The notes below the pieces were generated by a model, which was not told the DNA's origin, did not search any database, and saw only the letters and a program-made list of their open reading frames with translations. A stretch of DNA of 64,000 bases from a virus, in the IMG/VR virus record IMGVR_UViG_3300021401_000004, positions 28,961 through 92,960 of that record; one strand, written 5' to 3'. A program made the translations under genes and the position numbers. Numbering within the stretch: position 1 is the first letter of the stretch; the number at the start of each line of letters is the position of its first letter. Positions 2,097-61,116 of the stretch are shown piece by piece.

Positions 2097-4726
2097 ATGG
2101 GCTATAGCCCGAGTTCTAATAACCAGTCAAACCTGCCTCAGTCCACGGTTCGGTACTACGACAAAAAGTTCCGTTAAATGGTTCTTGCGGAATAGGGTCG
2201 AAGCTCGTGTGCCAAGAAACAGGAGAACCTGAAGGCACAGACGCCGTTCGTCGCGTGTTCCGAACGTTTGGACCTCCCGATGAAATCTGGTAACCAGTAC
2301 AACTTGTATCAAACAGGTACCCTCATCGCGTAAGCGATGTTGAATAACGTGGCTATATCGGGGGATAACTCATTGAGTCAATCCCGAGGGAAGTCTAAGT
2401 GACCCCGTAGAGACTACACGCCGCGCCCCGGAAACGGGTGATGATATAGTCCGCACTTACGGGCGACCGTAAGAGGTTGGCAGTTATACTTGCCCGCCGC
2501 AACAAAATGGATGTATGTTCCCCTCGCGGCCAACACCAGTCAGACGACTGAAGGAACTGTTGGCGCGGGCGTGAGCGTATCTGTACTGAATACCTCGGCG
2601 ACAATCGGTGAGTTGATTTGCGGCTCACCATAAACTTGACTATATCGGTGGACATCTGCTATAATGGCAGACAATACCGAGCCAAGACTAACCGTTTTAC
2701 AAGCCTATTAAATAATCCAAAAGGATGGCTAGAATGTCAGACAAATCAAAATATTCGTACCTCGCTGGAATTATTGATGGCGAGGGCTGTTTTTGCATCG
2801 GAGCTGGACGACGCCAGAAGTGGGGCGTCATCAACTACAATCCGCAGATATTGGTTGGCAATACGGACCATAGATTGACTGCGTGGCTGAAGGAAAACTT
2901 CGGGGGCGTAACTTTTACGCAACGCCCGAATAACCCGAGATGCAAAATTCCGTCTATTTGGCGGTTGTCGAAAAAGAAGGACATGGAACTTCTTATTTTG
3001 GCAATCATGCCTTATCTGATAATCAAAAAAGAGCGTGCAATTGTCTTCCTAGAATTTCTACGGCTTCCGCCGACAATGAATCCCGAACGTCGGGAAGAGT
3101 TGTGGAAACAGTTGTCGATCTTGAATAAACGGGGAGTAGACGTAGAGACTAATACGTCAAGCAGTTCGGAAAACGAACTGAAGATAGAGTCCGAACTTAC
3201 TGGTGACAGTAAGAGTGGCCCTGTGGTGACACAGGAGACGGCGACGCCCGTAATGACTGCCTAAAAACAGCATTCCCAAAACACAGTTGACGCTGATTAC
3301 GCTAACTTCTCCAGCCTCAGTCTGGCGACCGCAATCGACAACACTGTCGAAAACGTCGCCCGAGAGATGGCCTACCGTCTCGGCGAGTCCCTGTCCGCTT
3401 TGGTTCGTGCAACTGCGGACGGCGCGAACTCCGTGGATTCTTCGGTCCTGACCAAACTGGCCGCGACCTCGACCACGAGCTTCACGACTCTCTCCTTGAC
3501 CTACATCCGAAACGCCGTGCAGTCACTTGCTGGGCGTTCGGTTCGCCCGTTTGACGAAGCTTCCAAAAACTTTGCTGGTGTGATCCATTAGGTTGCGGGC
3601 AACCGCATAAGGGTGGATATAAAATTCTCTCTGATTGACTCGAACGCTGAGATGCCAACGAGGGGCAAGTCAATATAGTTCCATAATGGAAACATATTGA
3701 CAGCCTGAACGACTAAGCGAGAGAACGTTCATGTCGCATGAACGATGCAATAGTCTGAACAGTACGGAAAATGAACGTACTGAAGTAAGCAGAAATGACT
3801 TGCTCGGGCAAATCGCCCGTAACAACTTGCCTTTTGCACTCGGCGATGTTTTGGCGGACAACTCGAACGATTCGCCAATCGATATCCTGAAGCGTACTCC
3901 GCAGGGTTACAGCCGCCTGGATGAAATCATCTCGACGGACTTGACCGAAGTCATTGAAATCCCGACTTCCGGCGTAAGCTTCTTCCAGTCAAACTTGGTG
4001 ACCACCAGCCCGAACTACAATCCGGGAACTGGCGCGGTTACGGGCTTGACTGCTCTGCGTACGTATATCTTCGGGCGCGATGGCATTTTCTCCATCAACC
4101 TCGGAGCGCAGGGTGACACCGGATACGGTGACGGTGAGTGGCGGAATATCCGTTTTTCATAATGTTTAGCGGATACAAAATTTCTTCTAATTGACTCGAA
4201 CCCTGGAATGGCAACGAGGCGCAAGTCCAGAAAACGGACAGCGTGAGAGACTAAACGAAGAAACGCCTTCGGGCGATGCAATAGTCCGGTCTTCACAGAA
4301 CAACAAATGTGAAGAGGCAAGCAGAAATGACTTGCCCGTCGAAAGACGTAACACAGACGTGCAACATCGTGCAAAACGCCGAGCCTTCGGTTGCGGACCC
4401 CAGCGGTCTAATTCCGGGGTGGACCAGCTATCGTGTTCACTTCACGACCAGCTTGGGTCCGGATACTACAATCCGTATGTCATGGTAAAGTCCTAATGCG
4501 GATTCAAAACTCAATCTTATTGACTTGAAACCTGAAATGGCAACAAGGCGGAACCCTTCGGGGACCGTGAGAGACTAAGCGATTGAGCGCCTTCGGGCGA
4601 TGCGATAGTCCGAACATACGGAAAACGAACCGTATGAGGTTGGCAGAAATGACCAATCTCAACAGCTTGTAAGTTGTTGATAACAAGGCGATTAGGGAAA
4701 TTGACGCGGCCAGCGCAATCAGCTAA
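2097..4726 (+). CDS. Major capsid protein (N4 gp56-like), 7 exons, 347 aa after splicing
   Basis: Exons 2097-2174, 2223-2309, 2511-2613, 3290-3588, 3830-4153, 4360-4476 and 4691-4726 total 1044 nt in one frame: MGYSPSS..YYDKKFR|ENLKAQTPF..LPMKSGNQYNLY|MYVPL..IGE|YADY..GVIH|PFALGD..NIR|CNIVQN..DPSGLIPGWTSY..TIR|IREIDAASAIS*. Every junction is exon-U / intron-G. Confidence 0.85.
2175..2222 (+). other. 48-nt group-I-like mini-intron lacking a catalytic core
   Basis: Begins with an in-frame TAA. The guide GTTCTT-GCGGAA pairs with 5' exon TTCCGT (U.G at the junction) and 3' exon GAGAAC. Ends in G. No P3-P8. Confidence 0.7.
2310..2510 (+). mobile_element. Group I intron 2 (201 nt, no ORF)
   Basis: P1 GTATC/GGTAC, P3 CGTGGC/GCCGCG, P7 AGAGACTA (2409) with GATATAGTCC (2443), P8 GAAA loop, P9 GCGA loop, terminal G. 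Confidence 0.88.
2614..3289 (+). mobile_element. Group I intron 3 (676 nt) with LAGLIDADG ORF
   Basis: P1 GGTGAGT/GCTCACC, AGAGACTA at 3144, GATAGAGTCC at 3183, terminal G3289. Removal restores E-Y-A-D-Y. Confidence 0.9.
2725..3264 (+). CDS. Single-motif LAGLIDADG homing endonuclease (intron-encoded)
   Basis: YLAGIIDGEGCF, FGG and PYLIIKKERA motifs. Confidence 0.9.
   Translation: MARMSDKSKYSYLAGIIDGEGCFCIGAGRRQKWGVINYNPQILVGNTDHRLTAWLKENFGGVTFTQRPNNPRCKIPSIWRLSKKKDMELLILAIMPYLIIKKERAIVFLEFLRLPPTMNPERREELWKQLSILNKRGVDVETNTSSSSENELKIESELTGDSKSGPVVTQETATPVMTA
3589..3829 (+). mobile_element. Group I intron 4 (241 nt)
   Basis: P1 ATCCAT/GTGGAT, P10 AAGG/CCTT, P3 TTCTCTC/GAGAGAA, P7 GACTA/TAGTC. 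Removal restores VIH-PF. Confidence 0.9.
4154..4359 (+). mobile_element. Group I intron 5 (206 nt)
   Basis: P1 TATCCGT/GCGGATA, P3 TTTCTTC/GAAGAAA, P7 AGAGACTA..AATAGTCC, terminal G4359. Confidence 0.9.
4477..4690 (+). mobile_element. Group I intron 6 (214 nt)
   Basis: P1 AATCCGT/GCGGATT, P10 CCTAAT/ATTAGG, P3 CTCAATC/GATTGAG, P7 AGAGACTA..GATAGTCC, terminal G4690. Confidence 0.9.
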
Positions 4727-4851: not shown

Positions 4852-5565
4852 GTGGACAAAGGAAATATAGTAGGTCAGAGGTACGAGCGGCTCGAAGTCC
4901 TGATGCCCGCTTGGATAAACGAAAAACAAAATCAAGTTTGGTTGTGCGTCTGCGATTGCGGGCAAATTCGGTTTATCACCACTGCCGTTTGGAATGCCCA
5001 AAGTCGCAAAAGTTGCGGGTGTTTGCGTCGGGAAGTTTCTCGCGGGCAAACAACGGCCATGAATCTGGCACGGGCGGGCCAACCGCGATCCGCCAAAGGC
5101 AAGATAGCGTCTCAAGCAGCTTGCAAGAAAATGAACGCGGTGCGGCACTCTCACGCCCGCCACGTTCTGATTAAAGTAGACCCCGAGCGTTTGGTGGGCG
5201 AATGTGATGTCTGCGGGGCCGTTCCACTCAAGATAATGAAGCACCGCGTCGGCAATCAACGCGACCAATATCTATGTTGGGTGGGTTCTTTGCGGGTTCA
5301 CAACGAATACGCGAATGCGAGAGTCCGTTATCCGAACCACGCCTTGGAAATGTTTAACAAACAGGCCAACGCCTGCGCGGTTTGCGACGGGCAGATGATT
5401 AGGGGCGATGGTTTGGCAAATGACGGTATGGTTCTAGATCACTGCCACACGACGGGCTATATACGCGGGTTTACGCATCAACGATGCAACAAAGGGCTTG
5501 CAATGTTTCTTGATCGTCCGGAAGTATTCCGCAAAGCCGCCGATTACTTGGAAAGAAATCGCTAG
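4852..5565 (+). CDS. Free-standing endonuclease VII-family homing endonuclease
   Basis: GTG start after GGAGGG. N-terminal WLCVCDCG..KSCGC module; C-terminal DHCHTTG.IRG...RCNKGL. Confidence 0.8.
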   Translation: MDKGNIVGQRYERLEVLMPAWINEKQNQVWLCVCDCGQIRFITTAVWNAQSRKSCGCLRREVSRGQTTAMNLARAGQPRSAKGKIASQAACKKMNAVRHSHARHVLIKVDPERLVGECDVCGAVPLKIMKHRVGNQRDQYLCWVGSLRVHNEYANARVRYPNHALEMFNKQANACAVCDGQMIRGDGLANDGMVLDHCHTTGYIRGFTHQRCNKGLAMFLDRPEVFRKAADYLERNR

Positions 5566-5578
5566 CCCGAGTAATTTT

Positions 5579-5740
5579 ATGAAACGCCTCCTAATCATCG
5601 CCCTGATTTTGCTCGCCTTGTTTTGTATCGGGCAACGGGCGATCATCATCGAATACGAGCACGACATCGATAAACTGCACCAGGAACTCAAGCCATCTGC
5701 GGGCGTCGAGAAACCTCCGGCCTGCTTCGACGAAGATTGA
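5579..5740 (+). CDS. Small membrane-anchored protein
   Basis: MKRLLIIALILLALF hydrophobic N-terminus. Confidence 0.5.
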   Translation: MKRLLIIALILLALFCIGQRAIIIEYEHDIDKLHQELKPSAGVEKPPACFDED

Positions 5741-5741
5741 C

Positions 5742-5770
5742 TTGACAAGGTTTCGGAAGTTTGGTAATCT
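5742..5770 (+). promoter_or_regulatory. sigma70-type promoter for the RNA cluster
   Basis: TTGACA-17 nt-TAATCT with extended -10 TG. Confidence 0.7.
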
Positions 5771-5953
5771 GTCTTTGGTCGATTATAGGAACGACAAATT
5801 ACGGGCTAGCTGACACTACCCGCGACAAATCGTTCGTCCTGTCAGGGAAAACCGGAAGTAATCATAGGAACCTTTCGGGCGACCAATTTGTTTTGTCCGT
5901 TTTCTGGACTGGTGGAGGCGGCGAACCTGCTGCCCTAAGCTTGTGCGGTGGCT

Positions 5954-6021
5954 ACGTACGTAGCTCAGACAGAGAGCACTGAGACCATAAATCTCAGGGT
6001 CGCAGGGTTAATGCCGTACGA
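5954..6021 (+). ncRNA. Degenerate tRNA-like element
   Basis: Acceptor CGTACG/CGTACG, D arm GCTC/GAGC after TA, anticodon-like stem CTGAGA/TCTCAG. T arm is reduced and there is no CCA. Confidence 0.5.
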
Positions 6022-6040
6022 GGCCCGCACAATTAAGTTT

Positions 6041-6360
6041 GCTCAGTTGAAGTGCTGTTAAGACGTGCAAGACCGGGCTTCGAAGCCCGCAGGTCCACCA
6101 GATCGCCCGTTAAGTCGGTCGGAAAACTTGACTTCGGGTTTGGCTGCCAATATTTGCAAACTGGTAATGGGCGACGTGACGGGCCTGAAATGGATTCGAT
6201 TGCGCGGACGAGATAGCATGGATGGGCACGGATGCTGTGGCCACGTTACGGACACAGAAACAACAACCGCTACGACTAAACCTCGGGCGTTTGCGGCAGC
6301 CGCTTAATAAACGGCCCGCACGGAGTCAGCCGGGAACTCTGGAAAATAATCCCGGCAACT
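6041..6360 (+). ncRNA. ssrA: Circularly permuted (two-piece) tmRNA
   Basis: Acceptor piece ends T-arm-CAGGTCCACCA at 6100. Coding piece starts GGGCCTGAAATGGATTCGA at 6181. 7-bp acceptor stem with G3.U70. Tag frame 6269-6307 reads ATTKPRAFAAAA*. Outer ends are approximate. Confidence 0.85.
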
Positions 6361-6457
6361 TTTGAATTTGCGGGTAACCCCGACCTGTTGGGTATTAGGC
6401 GGCGTACGAGGATGCAACAGGGAACTCCTCACGCAGAAGTCCTGCCCGTAATAAAAA

Positions 6458-6490
6458 CCGAGGCTCGGAGGCTAAACCTTCGGGCTTCGG
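6458..6490 (+). terminator. Strong hairpin after the RNA cluster
   Basis: CCGAGGCTCGGAGG..CCTTCGGGCTTCGG. No clear U-tract on the + strand. Confidence 0.35.
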
Positions 6491-6497
6491 GTCCAAT

Positions 6498-6710
6498 ATG
6501 AACTTTCCCAAGACAGTTCGAGTCTACGATGCTATTGCGGGTGATTTTGTGGACAAGAAAGTGCGCTACAGGGAAGAAAAACTAGCTGACGGGCTAGTCT
6601 ATCGCTCTTGGGTAGTTCCGAGCGACCAATCCGTCGAATACATACACAAGAACGGCGGAGTTTACAAACGTATTACGGCGGGCTTCAGTCTTTATACGGA
6701 AAACGTATGA
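6498..6710 (+). CDS. Hypothetical protein
   Basis: First of a translationally coupled small-ORF array. Confidence 0.55.
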   Translation: MNFPKTVRVYDAIAGDFVDKKVRYREEKLADGLVYRSWVVPSDQSVEYIHKNGGVYKRITAGFSLYTENV

Positions 6711-6850
6711 CCTACCACTCGAAATATCCGCAAACCGAAGATACCCAACAGAAGCTTATCAAATGGGGTTGGTGCGACACTCTTGTCCGCCCGCTGTATT
6801 GGAAAACCATTTACGAAGATAGGCGAGAGCGCCGTATTCTTACCACCTAG
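6707..6850 (+). CDS. Hypothetical protein
   Basis: ATGA overlap with the previous ORF. Confidence 0.45.
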   Translation: MTYHSKYPQTEDTQQKLIKWGWCDTLVRPLYWKTIYEDRRERRILTT

Positions 6851-7860: not shown

Positions 7861-8463
7861 ATGGGAACAGCAGGACGCGCCAAAGCTCCGTGGGAGGATT
7901 ACGGAGAGAATCTGATGGGCCACGACTCGAAAGAGATGGACGCCCTCATACGAAAGTATGCCGAGAATCGCTATGTAACCTCTAGCGCCCAGAATCAAGA
8001 AGAGTTGGCTCGGCAGAAGGAAATCAACTACGCGCTCGCGGCCCAATACCGCTTCCTTGATCCCGCCGACTACGAAGATATCCATGCCCGTATCGGGCAA
8101 GTTATGACTTACGAGCAGTTCATCGGAAAGCTCAGGGATGGCTGCAAGCTGAAATGCTTCTATCGCGAGATGGGGCATCCGCAGATGATCGCTCTTTGGG
8201 GCGTAAGAAAAGAAGGCCAGCAGGCGGACGTGATCTCGTGGTGCCAAAGGCCCGCCATGATTGAGCTAGAAGTACCCCGCTTCGATGACAAGGGCGTTCC
8301 TTCGGGATTCCGATATCGGGGTTGGAGAACTTGTCTGATGGACGCCCGCAGAAAAGGATTCCTTACCGAGGCGCAGATCAAGAAAGTTTTCGGGGAACCA
8401 ATAGGTCCCGCCGCCCGCACATATTTGAAATTCATGCAATCGCTTAGACAAAACTATGAGTAG
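7861..8463 (+). CDS. Hypothetical phage protein
   Basis: AAGGA ribosome-binding site; 200-aa ORF. Confidence 0.7.
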   Translation: MGTAGRAKAPWEDYGENLMGHDSKEMDALIRKYAENRYVTSSAQNQEELARQKEINYALAAQYRFLDPADYEDIHARIGQVMTYEQFIGKLRDGCKLKCFYREMGHPQMIALWGVRKEGQQADVISWCQRPAMIELEVPRFDDKGVPSGFRYRGWRTCLMDARRKGFLTEAQIKKVFGEPIGPAARTYLKFMQSLRQNYE

Positions 8464-38780: not shown

Positions 38781-39764
38781 TTAGTCTTTTGAACATAGCT
38801 TTTCGAGCAACTTGGTTTTGAACCCGCCCGCGTAATCCGAATCATCGCGAAACGCCTGAACCACGGCATCCCTACCCTGAAACTTCCTACCGCCCTCGGT
38901 GACGAACCACGCGCCACTCTTAGAAATCACTCCGTTTTCCGTACAGAGATCAACCAAATCGCCTTCTTTGCTGAATCCTCGGTCAAACAATAGATCGACC
39001 TCGCAGTAGTTCGCGGGCGCTGCGATCTTGTTCTTCACGACCTTGATCTTGGTTCGGGCACCGATAACTTGCTCGCCGTCCTTCAGGTTGCCCGTACGAG
39101 AAACTTCGAGTCTCAAACTTGCGTAGAACTTGAGTCCTTTACCTCCCGTCGTAACAGTTGGCGTCCCGTAGAAAACCCCGATCCGGTCGCGCAACTGATT
39201 TACGAAGCACAGACAAGTATTCGTCTTCGATACGCTGCCCGTAAGTTTCCTAAGAGCCTGATTCATCATTCGGGCTTGGAGGGCCATAGAAGCGTCGCCC
39301 ATCTGCCCTTCTAGCTCGGCTTTCGGAACCAAAGCAGCAACGCTATCGACTCCGACGATGCCAACTTCACCCGACCGGACAAGCTCGTCGGCAATCTCCA
39401 GTCCTTCTTCCCCACAACTTGGCTGCGAGATATAAAGATTGTCTACGTCAACTCCAAGTCTTCGGGCGTGGTCGCGGTCGAAGGCGTGTTCGGCGTCGAT
39501 CAAAGCACAATTTTCGCCGAGCTTCTGGGCTTCAGCCATTGTGGACAACAAGATCGTGCTCTTGCCCGTCGCCTCTTGCCCGTACAATTCTACGATTCGG
39601 CCCCGTGGGAATCCGCCTAAGGGATTCGGGCGAATCGCCCGATCAAGACTCAGGATGCCCGTAGAAATAACCTCGGCAGGAATATGCTCAGTATCTCCGA
39701 CTCGCATCAAGGCGTCTTTTCCGAAAAGCTTCTCGATTTTTGTGCGGGCAATTCTGAGGGTCAT
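38781..39764 (-). CDS. recA: RecA recombinase
   Basis: G.PRGRIVELYG....GKST, IDAEHA, VDSVAALVPKAELEG, QAR.M.QALRKL, GG..LKFYAS.RL, KNK. Confidence 0.97.
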   Translation of the reverse strand: MTLRIARTKIEKLFGKDALMRVGDTEHIPAEVISTGILSLDRAIRPNPLGGFPRGRIVELYGQEATGKSTILLSTMAEAQKLGENCALIDAEHAFDRDHARRLGVDVDNLYISQPSCGEEGLEIADELVRSGEVGIVGVDSVAALVPKAELEGQMGDASMALQARMMNQALRKLTGSVSKTNTCLCFVNQLRDRIGVFYGTPTVTTGGKGLKFYASLRLEVSRTGNLKDGEQVIGARTKIKVVKNKIAAPANYCEVDLLFDRGFSKEGDLVDLCTENGVISKSGAWFVTEGGRKFQGRDAVVQAFRDDSDYAGGFKTKLLEKLCSKD

Positions 39765-53868: not shown

Positions 53869-54166
53869 CTAGATTCTTTGTTCTGCCGCGAACTTGTATT
53901 CGGGCAACCGAATCATACCAGCCCTGAACGCCCGAATCAAGCGGTACTCGTCGAGCGATAAATCCTTCTTGTCCCGATTACACCCGAGGCAGGAAGTTAC
54001 GATCTTGGTTCCTCCCTGCGACTGCGGAACGATATGATCTTTGGTCTTGATATCGGGCGGCGGGATCGACTTTGGATTGATACTTCCACGACCAAACCGC
54101 TCGCCCGCAATAGAAGCAGAACGAATCCGGATGCCCGAGTAGCCCGCCATTTGCGAGGACGACCAT
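53869..54166 (-). pseudogene. Frameshifted HNH endonuclease
   Basis: CFYCG is in one frame; TKDHIVP.S.GG..C..CN..K is in another. Confidence 0.6.
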
Positions 54167-55194
54167 TATTTTCCTCCGAGCAACTCCTTCAGCTTTCCTT
54201 CTGATTCCGCGGCTTCTAATCGGGCGACCAACTCGTTCATTTTCTGAACTGGAATGTCGTTCGTTATCTGAACGCCCGATTCCTTCAATAAATACTCTCG
54301 GATGCCCGTAAATCCTTTGTCCTTCAGTTTGATTAACCGCGCCATGAAAGCTTTTCGCTCGTCGTCAGTAGCGAGCCTCGCGGGGTTCTCACCTACCATT
54401 GACTTTCCAGGATTGACGGGCGGTTCAGGGTCGCCCGGAAAGATAACATCGGCGTCAGTAATAGGATTTTCGGGCGTTATGGTGTTGGAAACAGCCTTGA
54501 CATCTTGTGGAGGAGTGTATCCCACATTTTCAAGGCCGGGAAAGACTTCGTTGGTCTGTTTCGTAGCGTTGACGCCCGCAAGTCCAGCCCAAGGCTTGCC
54601 CGCATCAGGAACAGATTCTTTCTTCTTACGGGCTACGGGCTTCTGAAGCTCGGGCAACTTGCCAACGGTTACGGGCGCTACTGGCAGATTAGGGACGTTG
54701 ACACCTTGTCCAGCAGTAACGGGCGAATCCGTTTTCCGGACAAAGTTATCTCCCTGTTTCTCGAACTTCTGGCTGGCGGCATTCCCGTCGTCGTCCTCAG
54801 CGGCTACACCAACGATTGCTTGGTAAGCGTAACGACGGGCGTACGTAATCGCGCTACCTGTTCCTTGGGCGTCGAATTTGGCAATGGGAAGTTCAAGTTC
54901 GTCTTTGATCCACTCGCCCGAGGCGTGCGAAAGCAAAGTCGTGAGCAGGATATGGCCGTTATAAATCTTTCCGGGCGATTGAATGACGGCAAGTCCTTGG
55001 TCGGACAAAGCGTCAGCCGTAGCTTCGATTACGCCCGCAAGATCGGCATACTTAGATTTGAAGAAAGGGTTGTTGGCGTCCTTCAGAACGGGCTTGAACT
55101 GTTTGTGGGCGTTAGCGAGGGCTTTGGTTAGCTCGCCAATTGTGGGGGATTTCTCGAAGCCCGAAATTACGGGCAGATTTTCATTGCCTGACAT
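54166..55194 (-). CDS. ERF-family ssDNA annealing protein
   Basis: K...NP.FKSKYADL, H.SGEWI, Q..GSAITYARRY.....VG...EDDDGN. Confidence 0.9.
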   Translation of the reverse strand: MSGNENLPVISGFEKSPTIGELTKALANAHKQFKPVLKDANNPFFKSKYADLAGVIEATADALSDQGLAVIQSPGKIYNGHILLTTLLSHASGEWIKDELELPIAKFDAQGTGSAITYARRYAYQAIVGVAAEDDDGNAASQKFEKQGDNFVRKTDSPVTAGQGVNVPNLPVAPVTVGKLPELQKPVARKKKESVPDAGKPWAGLAGVNATKQTNEVFPGLENVGYTPPQDVKAVSNTITPENPITDADVIFPGDPEPPVNPGKSMVGENPARLATDDERKAFMARLIKLKDKGFTGIREYLLKESGVQITNDIPVQKMNELVARLEAAESEGKLKELLGGK

Positions 55195-59776: not shown

Positions 59777-60088
59777 TCATTTCATTTGACGGGCGTCGAA
59801 CTCTGGAAACACTATTTCGGCTTCGCAAGTCTGCATCTTGCCGTCCTGAAAGTATTTTACCCAGATATCGCCCGCTTCCTCGCCTTCACCTTTCAGAATA
59901 AACAACTTCTTGGGGTGTTTCTTGGAGAACGCCCGCATGTCCTGCTCGTGTTCGTACCATTTGCAGGCGTCGTCAAATGGGTCCCCTTCACCACCGTACA
60001 AGGTTTTATACTGATCCTCGATGACTTCAGTTTCAATTACGTTGTCCTTGGGAGAAAATTCCAACTCAAATCGTGTGTAATAACCCAT
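59777..60088 (-). CDS. Hypothetical phage protein
   Basis: AGGAGG ribosome-binding site; MGYYT.F..KWY.H..DM..FS...P..LF.L.GEGEE. Confidence 0.7.
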   Translation of the reverse strand: MGYYTRFELEFSPKDNVIETEVIEDQYKTLYGGEGDPFDDACKWYEHEQDMRAFSKKHPKKLFILKGEGEEAGDIWVKYFQDGKMQTCEAEIVFPEFDARQMK

Positions 60089-61116
60089 CAGTCTCCTCCT
60101 GCGGTCGCCCGCAATACGTTTTCCGTACACAAAGCTTGCCCGATAATCTCAGCGTACTTCTTGTGATCTTCGGGCGATGAGTGCGTATACCTCGCCCCGA
60201 TTCCTTGTCTCGCGTGGCCCATTCGTTCGTCTTGGAGGTATTCGGGCACCCCGAGACTCTGCATCAGGGACTTGTTCATGTGCCGAAGTGCGTGCAAGCC
60301 GATACCTTCACCAAGTACGGGTTTCAGCCGTCTCACAACATCGCCGTTGTTCCAGACTTTACCCTTGTTGGAAAATAATAAATTCTCGTCAGGTCTTGTC
60401 GTGTCGGGTCCTGTCCAGTCGCGTCTTGTCAGGTCCAGTTGCGTCAAGTAAAACCCAAGATTGCGGGCGAGGCCCCGGCTAATGTGAATCGCCCGCAAAG
60501 CATTCGTTGTCTTTGGGGTTTGCAAGACGCCCCGAAACGCCGAGCGCCGAATGTGGACGATCTGATTAGCCAGATCAATATCGTCGCGCATTAAACTGAC
60601 CATCTCCCCGCCACGGCAACCGAGTTCGGCGCATAGCTGCAACATCATCCCGAATTGTCCGTCCACCTTCCGTACTAACTCGCGAACCTCCTCGGTGGAC
60701 AAGTGACGGGCTTCGGTTTTCTGCGCCCTCGGCAGGCTTAGGAATTCAAACGGGTTTTCCTTGACGTACTTCCAAGCGCGGGCCTTCCGCCAAACCATCC
60801 GCATTACTCCGAGCAAGTTTCGGAGAGTTTTGGGAGAGCCTAGGAAGCCCGTAACGTATTGTTGAATCCGCTCGGTATCGATCTTATTCAGCGGCAGTTG
60901 CCCGAAAGTCTGATTCAACGCTTCGATGTTCGATGTAATACTGCTCTGCGATGCGGGTTTGAAGTTAGGAACGATATCGGCCAAGTATTGGTCCGTAACG
61001 GTCTTGAACTTGACGTATTCCTTCGGGCGTTGGCTGCTCGCAAATATCCCGTCTTCGCGCATCTCAACCCAAACTTGGATCGTATTACCGTCGAAAGTGA
61101 GGGTTCCGCGTTTCAT
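60088..61116 (-). CDS. Tyrosine recombinase/integrase
   Basis: G.R.GE, PKT....R, HALRH, MGH, YTH catalytic set. Confidence 0.9.
   Translation of the reverse strand: MKRGTLTFDGNTIQVWVEMREDGIFASSQRPKEYVKFKTVTDQYLADIVPNFKPASQSSITSNIEALNQTFGQLPLNKIDTERIQQYVTGFLGSPKTLRNLLGVMRMVWRKARAWKYVKENPFEFLSLPRAQKTEARHLSTEEVRELVRKVDGQFGMMLQLCAELGCRGGEMVSLMRDDIDLANQIVHIRRSAFRGVLQTPKTTNALRAIHISRGLARNLGFYLTQLDLTRRDWTGPDTTRPDENLLFSNKGKVWNNGDVVRRLKPVLGEGIGLHALRHMNKSLMQSLGVPEYLQDERMGHARQGIGARYTHSSPEDHKKYAEIIGQALCTENVLRATAGGD

Follow-up and report, generated by a model that had tools for sequence, protein, structure and literature searches.

Organization of the permuted tmRNA locus

The window, by which the whole stretch of 64,000 nucleotides analysed here is meant, corresponds to bases 28,961-92,960 of a 92,960-bp IMG/VR virus record rated 100% complete by CheckV. 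The DNA runs that contain the stretch are soil metagenomes. On the (+) strand, from 6040 to about 6375, the parts of a tmRNA (ssrA) lie in circularly permuted order, with the acceptor piece ahead of the coding piece. The features of the region are listed below.

5941 to 6031, (+): tRNA-like fold, given as context and lying outside the conserved tmRNA block (fold z -3.26)
6040 to 6100, (+): acceptor piece (RF04321 alignment, MFE fold, pair counts)
6040-6045, 6052-6059 and 6064-6070, (+): 3' strands of P2 in the acceptor piece
6074-6089, (+): T arm, with a 5-bp stem CGGGC/GCCCG and the 6-nt loop UUCGAA
6090-6096, (+): 3' strand of the acceptor stem, CAGGTCC, then discriminator A6097 and encoded CCA at 6098-6100
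6101 to 6180, (+): intervening segment of 80 nt with no ORF inside (MFE folds)
6181 to 6228, (+): 5' end of the coding piece (sequence, RF04321, fold, pair counts)
6181-6187, (+): 5' strand of the acceptor stem, GGGCCUG, with G3 at 6183
6188-6199, (+): D-loop analogue AAAUGGAUUCGA
6200-6206, 6212-6219 and 6223-6228, (+): 5' strands of P2 in the coding piece
6235 to 6257, (+): hairpin CUGUGGCC-ACGUUAC-GGACACAG, where pseudoknot 1 is expected (folds)
6269 to 6310, (+): tag reading frame, with resume codon GCU, peptide ATTKPRAFAAAA (6269-6304) and tandem stops TAA TAA
6311 to 6375, (+): 3' domain of the coding piece (fold z -2.68)

The features named in the original prediction were recovered at their coordinates, namely CAGGTCC-ACCA ending at 6100, GGGCCTG from 6181, the G3.U70 pair, helix 2, the self-closing spacer and the tag. 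The acceptor stem is formed by pairing of 6181-6187 with 6090-6096 over 7 bp and includes G6183.U6094, which is the G3.U70 pair. P2 is built across the two pieces by 6064-6070/6200-6206, 6052-6059/6212-6219 and 6040-6045/6223-6228, a total of 21 bp. The spacer is closed by a 10-bp helix of 6103-6112 with 6165-6174, and by analogy with known two-piece tmRNAs the 80-nt segment 6101-6180 is presumably removed in maturation. An unconstrained MFE fold of 6040-6375 gave the acceptor stem with G3.U70, the T arm, the three P2 segments and the self-closing spacer.

In the coding piece, the 7-bp hairpin at 6235-6257 ends 11 nt upstream of the resume codon; a search by eye near this hairpin found no second stem of a pseudoknot 1. 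The tag frame opens with a GCN resume codon in place of a start codon and closes with GCC GCU (Ala-Ala) followed by the stop. The tag ends in AAAA, not in the usual LAA, and is unlike the AND...LAA tags called by ARAGORN in several other phage contigs. The 3' domain carries a hairpin (6329-6335/6350-6356) followed by the U-rich AACUUUUGAAUUU, which together look like a terminator; at this place the related genome L008 has a different hairpin and U-rich tail. A promoter and terminator scan of 5400-6800 gave no match, and the hairpin was missed by this simple scan because its loop is 14 nt long. A terminal helix between 6023-6039 and 6357-6375, present in the window MFE fold, was dropped because it is absent in L008 and lies partly past the likely terminator.

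Detection of the gene by family models

The Rfam family RF04321 (tmRNA_permuted) matched the window at 6040-6307 (+) with 65.8 bits against a gathering score of 47. The match covers model positions 1-213 of 213, has an E value of 1.9e-10 for the whole 64-kb window, and its alignment ends at the tag stop. The checks proposed originally turned out differently. ARAGORN called no tRNA or tmRNA in the window, nor a tmRNA in L008. The alpha, beta and cyano subtype models of Rfam (RF01849, RF01850 and RF01851) all scored below threshold on the window gene. The best of them, beta_tmRNA, reached 39.7 bits against 84 and covered the tRNA-like domain only, with a further 13-bit fragment; the alpha and cyano matches were lower-scoring overlaps of the beta match. 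A BLAST search with the gene in 50,697 phage records stayed empty at E 1e-5 and also at E 10. The gene is thus missed by ARAGORN and by the three older subtype models and is detected by the merged RF04321 alone.

The T loop of the window gene, UUCGAA, has 6 nt and is closed by a C-G pair, where the canonical loop has 7 nt and is closed by G53-C61. ARAGORN calls L015 and many other permuted genes with the same 6-nt loop, so the loop is not the cause of its miss in the window. Loops of 6 nt (UUCGAA or UUCGAU), closed by U-A or C-G, occur in 10 of the 14 viral permuted tmRNAs described below, some of which pass the beta model, and are therefore no bar to membership of RF04321. All 30 metagenome matches also share the 6-nt loop, the search pattern having selected for it. 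Judged on this one stem sequence in bacteria, a short T loop may be characteristic of tmRNAs carried by phages.

Relatives of the gene and selection on its helices and tag

A degenerate pattern for the permuted tRNA-like domain retrieved 14 IMG/VR contigs, and all 14 match RF04321. Among them, the window's own family consists of L008 and L015. L015 covers 7.4 kb of a more distantly related phage. The genome of L008 (G001) is 91,482 bp long, bears direct terminal repeats, has a completeness rating of 100% and carries the same gene. With the window record also rated complete, this bears out that the gene is phage-encoded, as was originally proposed. A metagenome scan added two more: L021, identical to L008 in this region, and L042, remotely related and with a similar tag.

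Covariation was scored on an alignment of the window, L008, L015 and L042, four distinct sequences of which two are nearly identical. In this alignment 93.2% of cells are paired, compared with 31-39% when the partners are slid, and 18 of 50 pairs have changed on both sides; none of 500 shuffles was as good. Four pairs of P2a are doubly changed between the window and L015. In the acceptor stem, all four sequences keep G6183.U6094, and pairs 4 and 5 covary in L042. The closing helix of the spacer is retained in L015 through changes on both sides, in a spacer of 63 nt that is 17 nt shorter and has a different interior. The hairpin at 6235-6257 is unchanged in L008 and L015; the columns aligned to it in L042 keep their pairs with three double changes and form part of a plausible H-type pseudoknot. 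Together with the RF04321 score, the covariation upholds the original call of a circularly permuted tmRNA.

The tag is ATTKPRAFAAAA in the window, AKPLAMAAAA in L008 and L015, and VTAPKARAFAAAA in L042. Among the relatives, Ala and Lys codons of the tags differ synonymously, and the terminal Ala codons do so throughout. These patterns of change in the aligned sequences show selection acting on the helices and on the tag as a peptide. Judged from its sequence, the gene is a real and evidently selected divergent phage two-piece tmRNA.

Conservation of the tag bears on the possibility that the RNA is a decoy, which would titrate host SmpB or AlaRS or block host trans-translation and would tag no protein. 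Such a role was proposed for mycobacteriophage DS6A, whose RNA, consisting of the tRNA-like domain only, is a tmRNA inhibitor (PMC4131195; PMC11915505), and the non-canonical 6-nt T loop, the short mRNA-like domain and the lack of an evident pseudoknot 1 would all fit it. The window gene, however, retains an entire tag frame, from a GCN resume codon to tandem stops, and its tag peptide has been kept through synonymous changes. Since a pure decoy has no need of a tag, this reading is disfavoured and we consider it very unlikely.

Between the window and L008, the segment 6030-6260 is 98.7% identical and the sequence on either side, tag cassette included, has been replaced; other blocks of the two genomes are 85-98% identical. 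This arrangement suggests that the mRNA-like part may have been exchanged as a module between phages. Over 6261-6440 the tag cassette and 3' domain are swapped relative to L008, whose tag sequence is that of the far more distant L015. In L051, a more distant relative, the 6 kb ahead of the homologue of ORF 7861-8463 showed an intact tRNA-Thr and an intact tRNA-Asn and no tmRNA. The tmRNA is thus an accessory of one sub-lineage.

Contiguity of the permuted order and searches in other data

Contigs of three DNA runs (X1, X3 and X4) from three studies, X1 being probably the source, carry acceptor piece, spacer and coding piece in this order in one contiguous stretch, as do the further contigs L008/L021 and L015. 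On these contigs the permuted order is no assembly artefact, and the rearrangement that the original prediction had named as its possible undoing did not appear. That the region is a rearranged assembly, or that an 80-aa ORF at 6065-6307 was mistaken for an RNA gene, is hardly conceivable. The window does come from a metagenome assembly and an ORF of 80 codons does overlap the region, but contigs of the three runs, of which one is probably the source, and three more contigs all show the same order. Moreover, the spacers are 80, 63 and 22 nt long, with differences that are not multiples of 3, and the changes in the helices are compensatory. A protein frame does not fit such changes in length and pairing.

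A soil metatranscriptome from another study (X2) contained contigs 100% identical to 5762-5946 and 6400-6563. As both flanks are matched, the phage or its RNA was present in the X2 sample. No X2 contig covers 6040-6375, and contigs of this kind cannot show absence, ends or strand.

The exact T arm, GGGC-UUCGAA-GCCC with TCCACCA, was found in none of 185,579 species genomes. A relaxed T-arm pattern recovered three one-piece tmRNAs with UUCGAU loops in these genomes, one each in a Patescibacteria genome, a Staphylococcaceae MAG and an unclassified bacterial MAG, which indicates that the scan works. The exact T arm with TCCACCA was present in 30 metagenome contigs, one-piece tmRNAs among them.

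Phage genome and surroundings of the gene

The genes of the window are of phage type and include a family-A DNA polymerase, a primase/helicase and collagen-like tail fibres, together with an HNH/endonuclease VII gene and a LAGLIDADG ORF adjoining a group I intron. The best match of the PolA protein is just 42% identical, and its matches are spread over phages of cyanobacteria and of alpha-, beta- and gammaproteobacteria. The phage also encodes a full RecA of bacterial type (349 bits), an ERF single-strand annealing protein and a tyrosine-integrase-like protein, at the following positions.

38781 to 39764, (-): RecA gene
54166 to 55194, (-): ERF gene
60088 to 61116, (-): tyrosine-integrase-like gene

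The phage RecA could be used for inference of the host or of a donor. No match to the tail sheath family was found in the phage, and none to SmpB. Rfam and ARAGORN found no tRNA genes in it, so the tmRNA is its sole tRNA-like gene. Without SmpB or tRNA genes of its own, the phage needs host factors, and host SmpB is assumed here.

The tyrosine-integrase-like gene raises the possibility that the tmRNA gene is an inert relic, either a captured ssrA copy or the remnant of a temperate-phage attachment site, with no role in infection; tmRNA genes are reported to be frequent integration sites (PMC4383910). The integrase gene, however, lies 54 kb away from the tmRNA gene, which is entire and no fragment. 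Few parts of the DNA shared by the window and L008 are as well conserved as the tmRNA core, compensatory and synonymous changes are seen, and the exact T arm is absent from all the species genomes scanned. A relic is therefore highly improbable.

The group I intron was located by Rfam at 2300-2473 (51.4 bits against a cut-off of 50) within the region 2097-4726, and the LAGLIDADG ORF lies downstream of it at 2725-3264. The same intron is carried by the relative L021. Among 34 other tmRNA-bearing loci scanned, this close relative alone has a group I intron nearby, and with 1 of 34 a general association of tmRNA genes with introns was rejected. The region also contains repeats at 3615-4653, in three units of about 330-550 bp that have the 3'-end motif of the intron in common (ACCGTAAGAGGTTGGCAG at 2466 and 4629).

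Directly upstream of the tmRNA, the fold at 5941-6031 is enclosed in a 9-bp closing stem and ends 8 nt before the acceptor piece. It has a D-arm-like GTAGCTCAG...GAGCAC, an anticodon-like arm with the loop CCAUAAA and a stunted T arm. Neither Rfam at E<=10 nor ARAGORN called a tRNA at 5941-6031, and L008 has at this place an unrelated sequence with a different structure. The fold may be a decayed tRNA gene. Further upstream, the window (5908-5935) and L015 (7084-7111) have in common a run of 28 nt, ACTGGTGGAGGCGGCGAACCTGCTGCCC, with 100% identity and a 7-bp hairpin within it; L015 is otherwise roughly 70% identical. Directly before this run stands a copy of the genome-wide motif TACGGAAAACG in L015 and a degenerate reverse copy, TCCGTTTTCTGGAC, in the window. 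Two readings are conceivable for the run: an element ahead of the tmRNA that acts in regulation or processing, or the terminal part of a small ORF.

Proposed mechanism of trans-translation

It is highly probable that an uncultivated soil phage of about 93 kb carries, at 6040 to about 6375 (+), a two-piece tmRNA (ssrA) gene that is functional. Anatomy, conservation, selection and location in a phage are taken from the comparisons above; for processing, charging, tagging and benefit to the phage we infer the following course, with the workings of two-piece tmRNA in Caulobacter and other bacteria as the model. A single precursor would be transcribed, and its halves would pair by the acceptor stem and the three-part P2 to form the tRNA-like domain. 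Host RNase P would cut 5' of G6181, and the spacer would be trimmed back to the encoded CCA at 6100. Two pieces held together by base pairing would be left, the acceptor piece (about 6040-6100) and the coding piece (6181 to about 6360-6375).

The RNA would then be charged by host AlaRS through G3.U70 and A73, and host SmpB and EF-Tu would bring it to ribosomes stalled at broken mRNA ends. Translation would resume at GCU 6269, append (A)ATTKPRAFAAAA and end at the tandem TAA, and the tagged protein would end in AATTKPRAFAAAA. In infection, the gene would supply extra capacity for ribosome rescue. The benefit could lie in general rescue late in infection, in relief from host nucleases that cut mRNA, or in rescue of ribosomes on splicing intermediates from the adjacent upstream capsid gene, which is rich in introns. 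The last option, which takes up the link to cleaved capsid pre-mRNA made in the original prediction, comes from adjacency within one phage lineage only and is put forward with much reserve.

Relation to known two-piece and one-piece tmRNAs

Two-piece tmRNAs of bacteria are reportedly found in Alphaproteobacteria, in Caulobacter through work by Keiler, Shapiro and Williams in 2000, and are said to occur also in some Betaproteobacteria and some Cyanobacteria, as described by Sharkady and Williams in 2004. The window gene resembles these forms in having the acceptor piece first, the junction by acceptor stem and P2, G3.U70, the encoded CCA and, as predicted here, excision of the spacer. It differs from them in its 6-nt T loop, its short mRNA-like domain, the lack of a recognisable pseudoknot 1 and its location in a phage.

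Two-piece tmRNAs of phages are already in the literature, and the window gene adds a divergent example. Buchholz et al. 2022 described them in Methylophilales phage Melnitz and in pelagimyophages and counted, among 133 unique tmRNAs in a phage database of 2021, 53 that were two-piece, 50 of which came from aquatic samples (PMC9004378); Stenotrophomonas phage Marzo (MZ326868.1) also has an annotated permuted tmRNA. The premise of the original prediction that phage tmRNAs are mainly one-piece is thus outdated. The model RF04321 dates from 2025, when the three subtype models were merged into it (PMC11915505), and the Marzo gene scores 119 bits with it and 94.6 against 84 with the beta model.

The window gene shares with those of Melnitz, Marzo and other Menderavirus phages the permuted order and a complete tRNA-like domain and tag frame, and with that of Marzo the match to RF04321. 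Several differences are seen. Phages of the Melnitz/Marzo type are large (141-160 kb), whereas the window phage has 93 kb, comes from soil and lacks a tail sheath match. The tmRNA of Marzo lies inside a tRNA cluster and passes the beta model, whereas the window phage is without any tRNA gene and its tmRNA fails all subtype models. The tag of Marzo starts VAAND, and several other phage tags start AND; the tag of the window is different. The window gene thereby extends phage two-piece tmRNAs from large phages with tRNA clusters, mostly from aquatic samples, to a mid-sized soil phage. It leaves the understanding of trans-translation unchanged. Its 6-nt T loop and the tags ending …AFAAAA and …AMAAAA are variants with which the tolerance of host AlaRS, of SmpB and of tag-specific proteases could be probed.

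The permuted form had also been read as a possible clue to the host, which is weak. Melnitz has a host outside the Alphaproteobacteria, yet its tmRNA groups with alphaproteobacterial forms (PMC9004378), which makes the form of the gene unreliable as a guide to the host, and the window gene fits no subtype model.

One-piece tmRNAs are carried by mycobacteriophages of the Bxz1 group and by Bacillus phage G (PMC4131195). Like these, the window gene is predicted to be a ribosome-rescue RNA borne by a phage. The one-piece forms of phages, as well as those of the contigs L030/L033 and L041, differ from it in their standard order, longer mRNA-like domain and unrelated tags. The T arm of the window is nevertheless shared by L030 and L041, and its acceptor stem and D-loop analogue also by L030.

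This likeness bears on the alternative, raised in the original prediction, that the lineage goes back to a one-piece tmRNA of a phage, circularly permuted on a separate occasion, and not to the two-piece forms of alpha- or betaproteobacteria or cyanobacteria. The 5'-terminal 19 nt and the 3'-terminal 30 nt of the tRNA-like domain of the window recur without a mismatch in L030 and L033, and with them the unusual acceptor GGGCCUG and the T arm CGGGC-UUCGAA-GCCCG; L041 shares with the window a 24-nt run, CAAGACCGGGCUUCGAAGCCCGCA. In a tree of the tRNA-like domain and P2 (115 columns), the window family joins L030 and L041 with support 82/90. The failure of the three subtype models (alpha, beta and cyano) on the gene points the same way. 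However, a single clade of all permuted forms was not rejected by the AU test (p 0.118), and the tree program warned of long-branch joins. L030 and L041 were found with a pattern that fixed the T arm, so that part of their likeness is a selection effect, and no similarity to the window is evident outside the tRNA-like domain. Exchange of tRNA-like domains between phage tmRNAs, or convergence, would give the same picture. In view of the AU test and the long-branch warning, a separate permutation is only hinted at, and we regard it as unlikely.

A more specific form of this alternative is that the window, L008 and L015 represent a fourth, phage-restricted two-piece lineage, with its own permutation from a one-piece phage tmRNA like those of L030 and L041, kept just downstream of the multi-intron capsid gene to rescue ribosomes from its broken splicing intermediates. 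The ancestor would then have had the 6-nt T loop and the GGGCCUG acceptor, and the capsid message would be a very abundant late mRNA. This combined proposal is distinctly unlikely.

The one-piece tmRNAs of L030 (675-1060) and L033 (622-1007) lie on low-GC contigs (38%) of 69.6 and 103.7 kb. Their tag is unusually long, with 29 residues: AKNNSTFADIFTFGKPVGMKSVAPVFALA.
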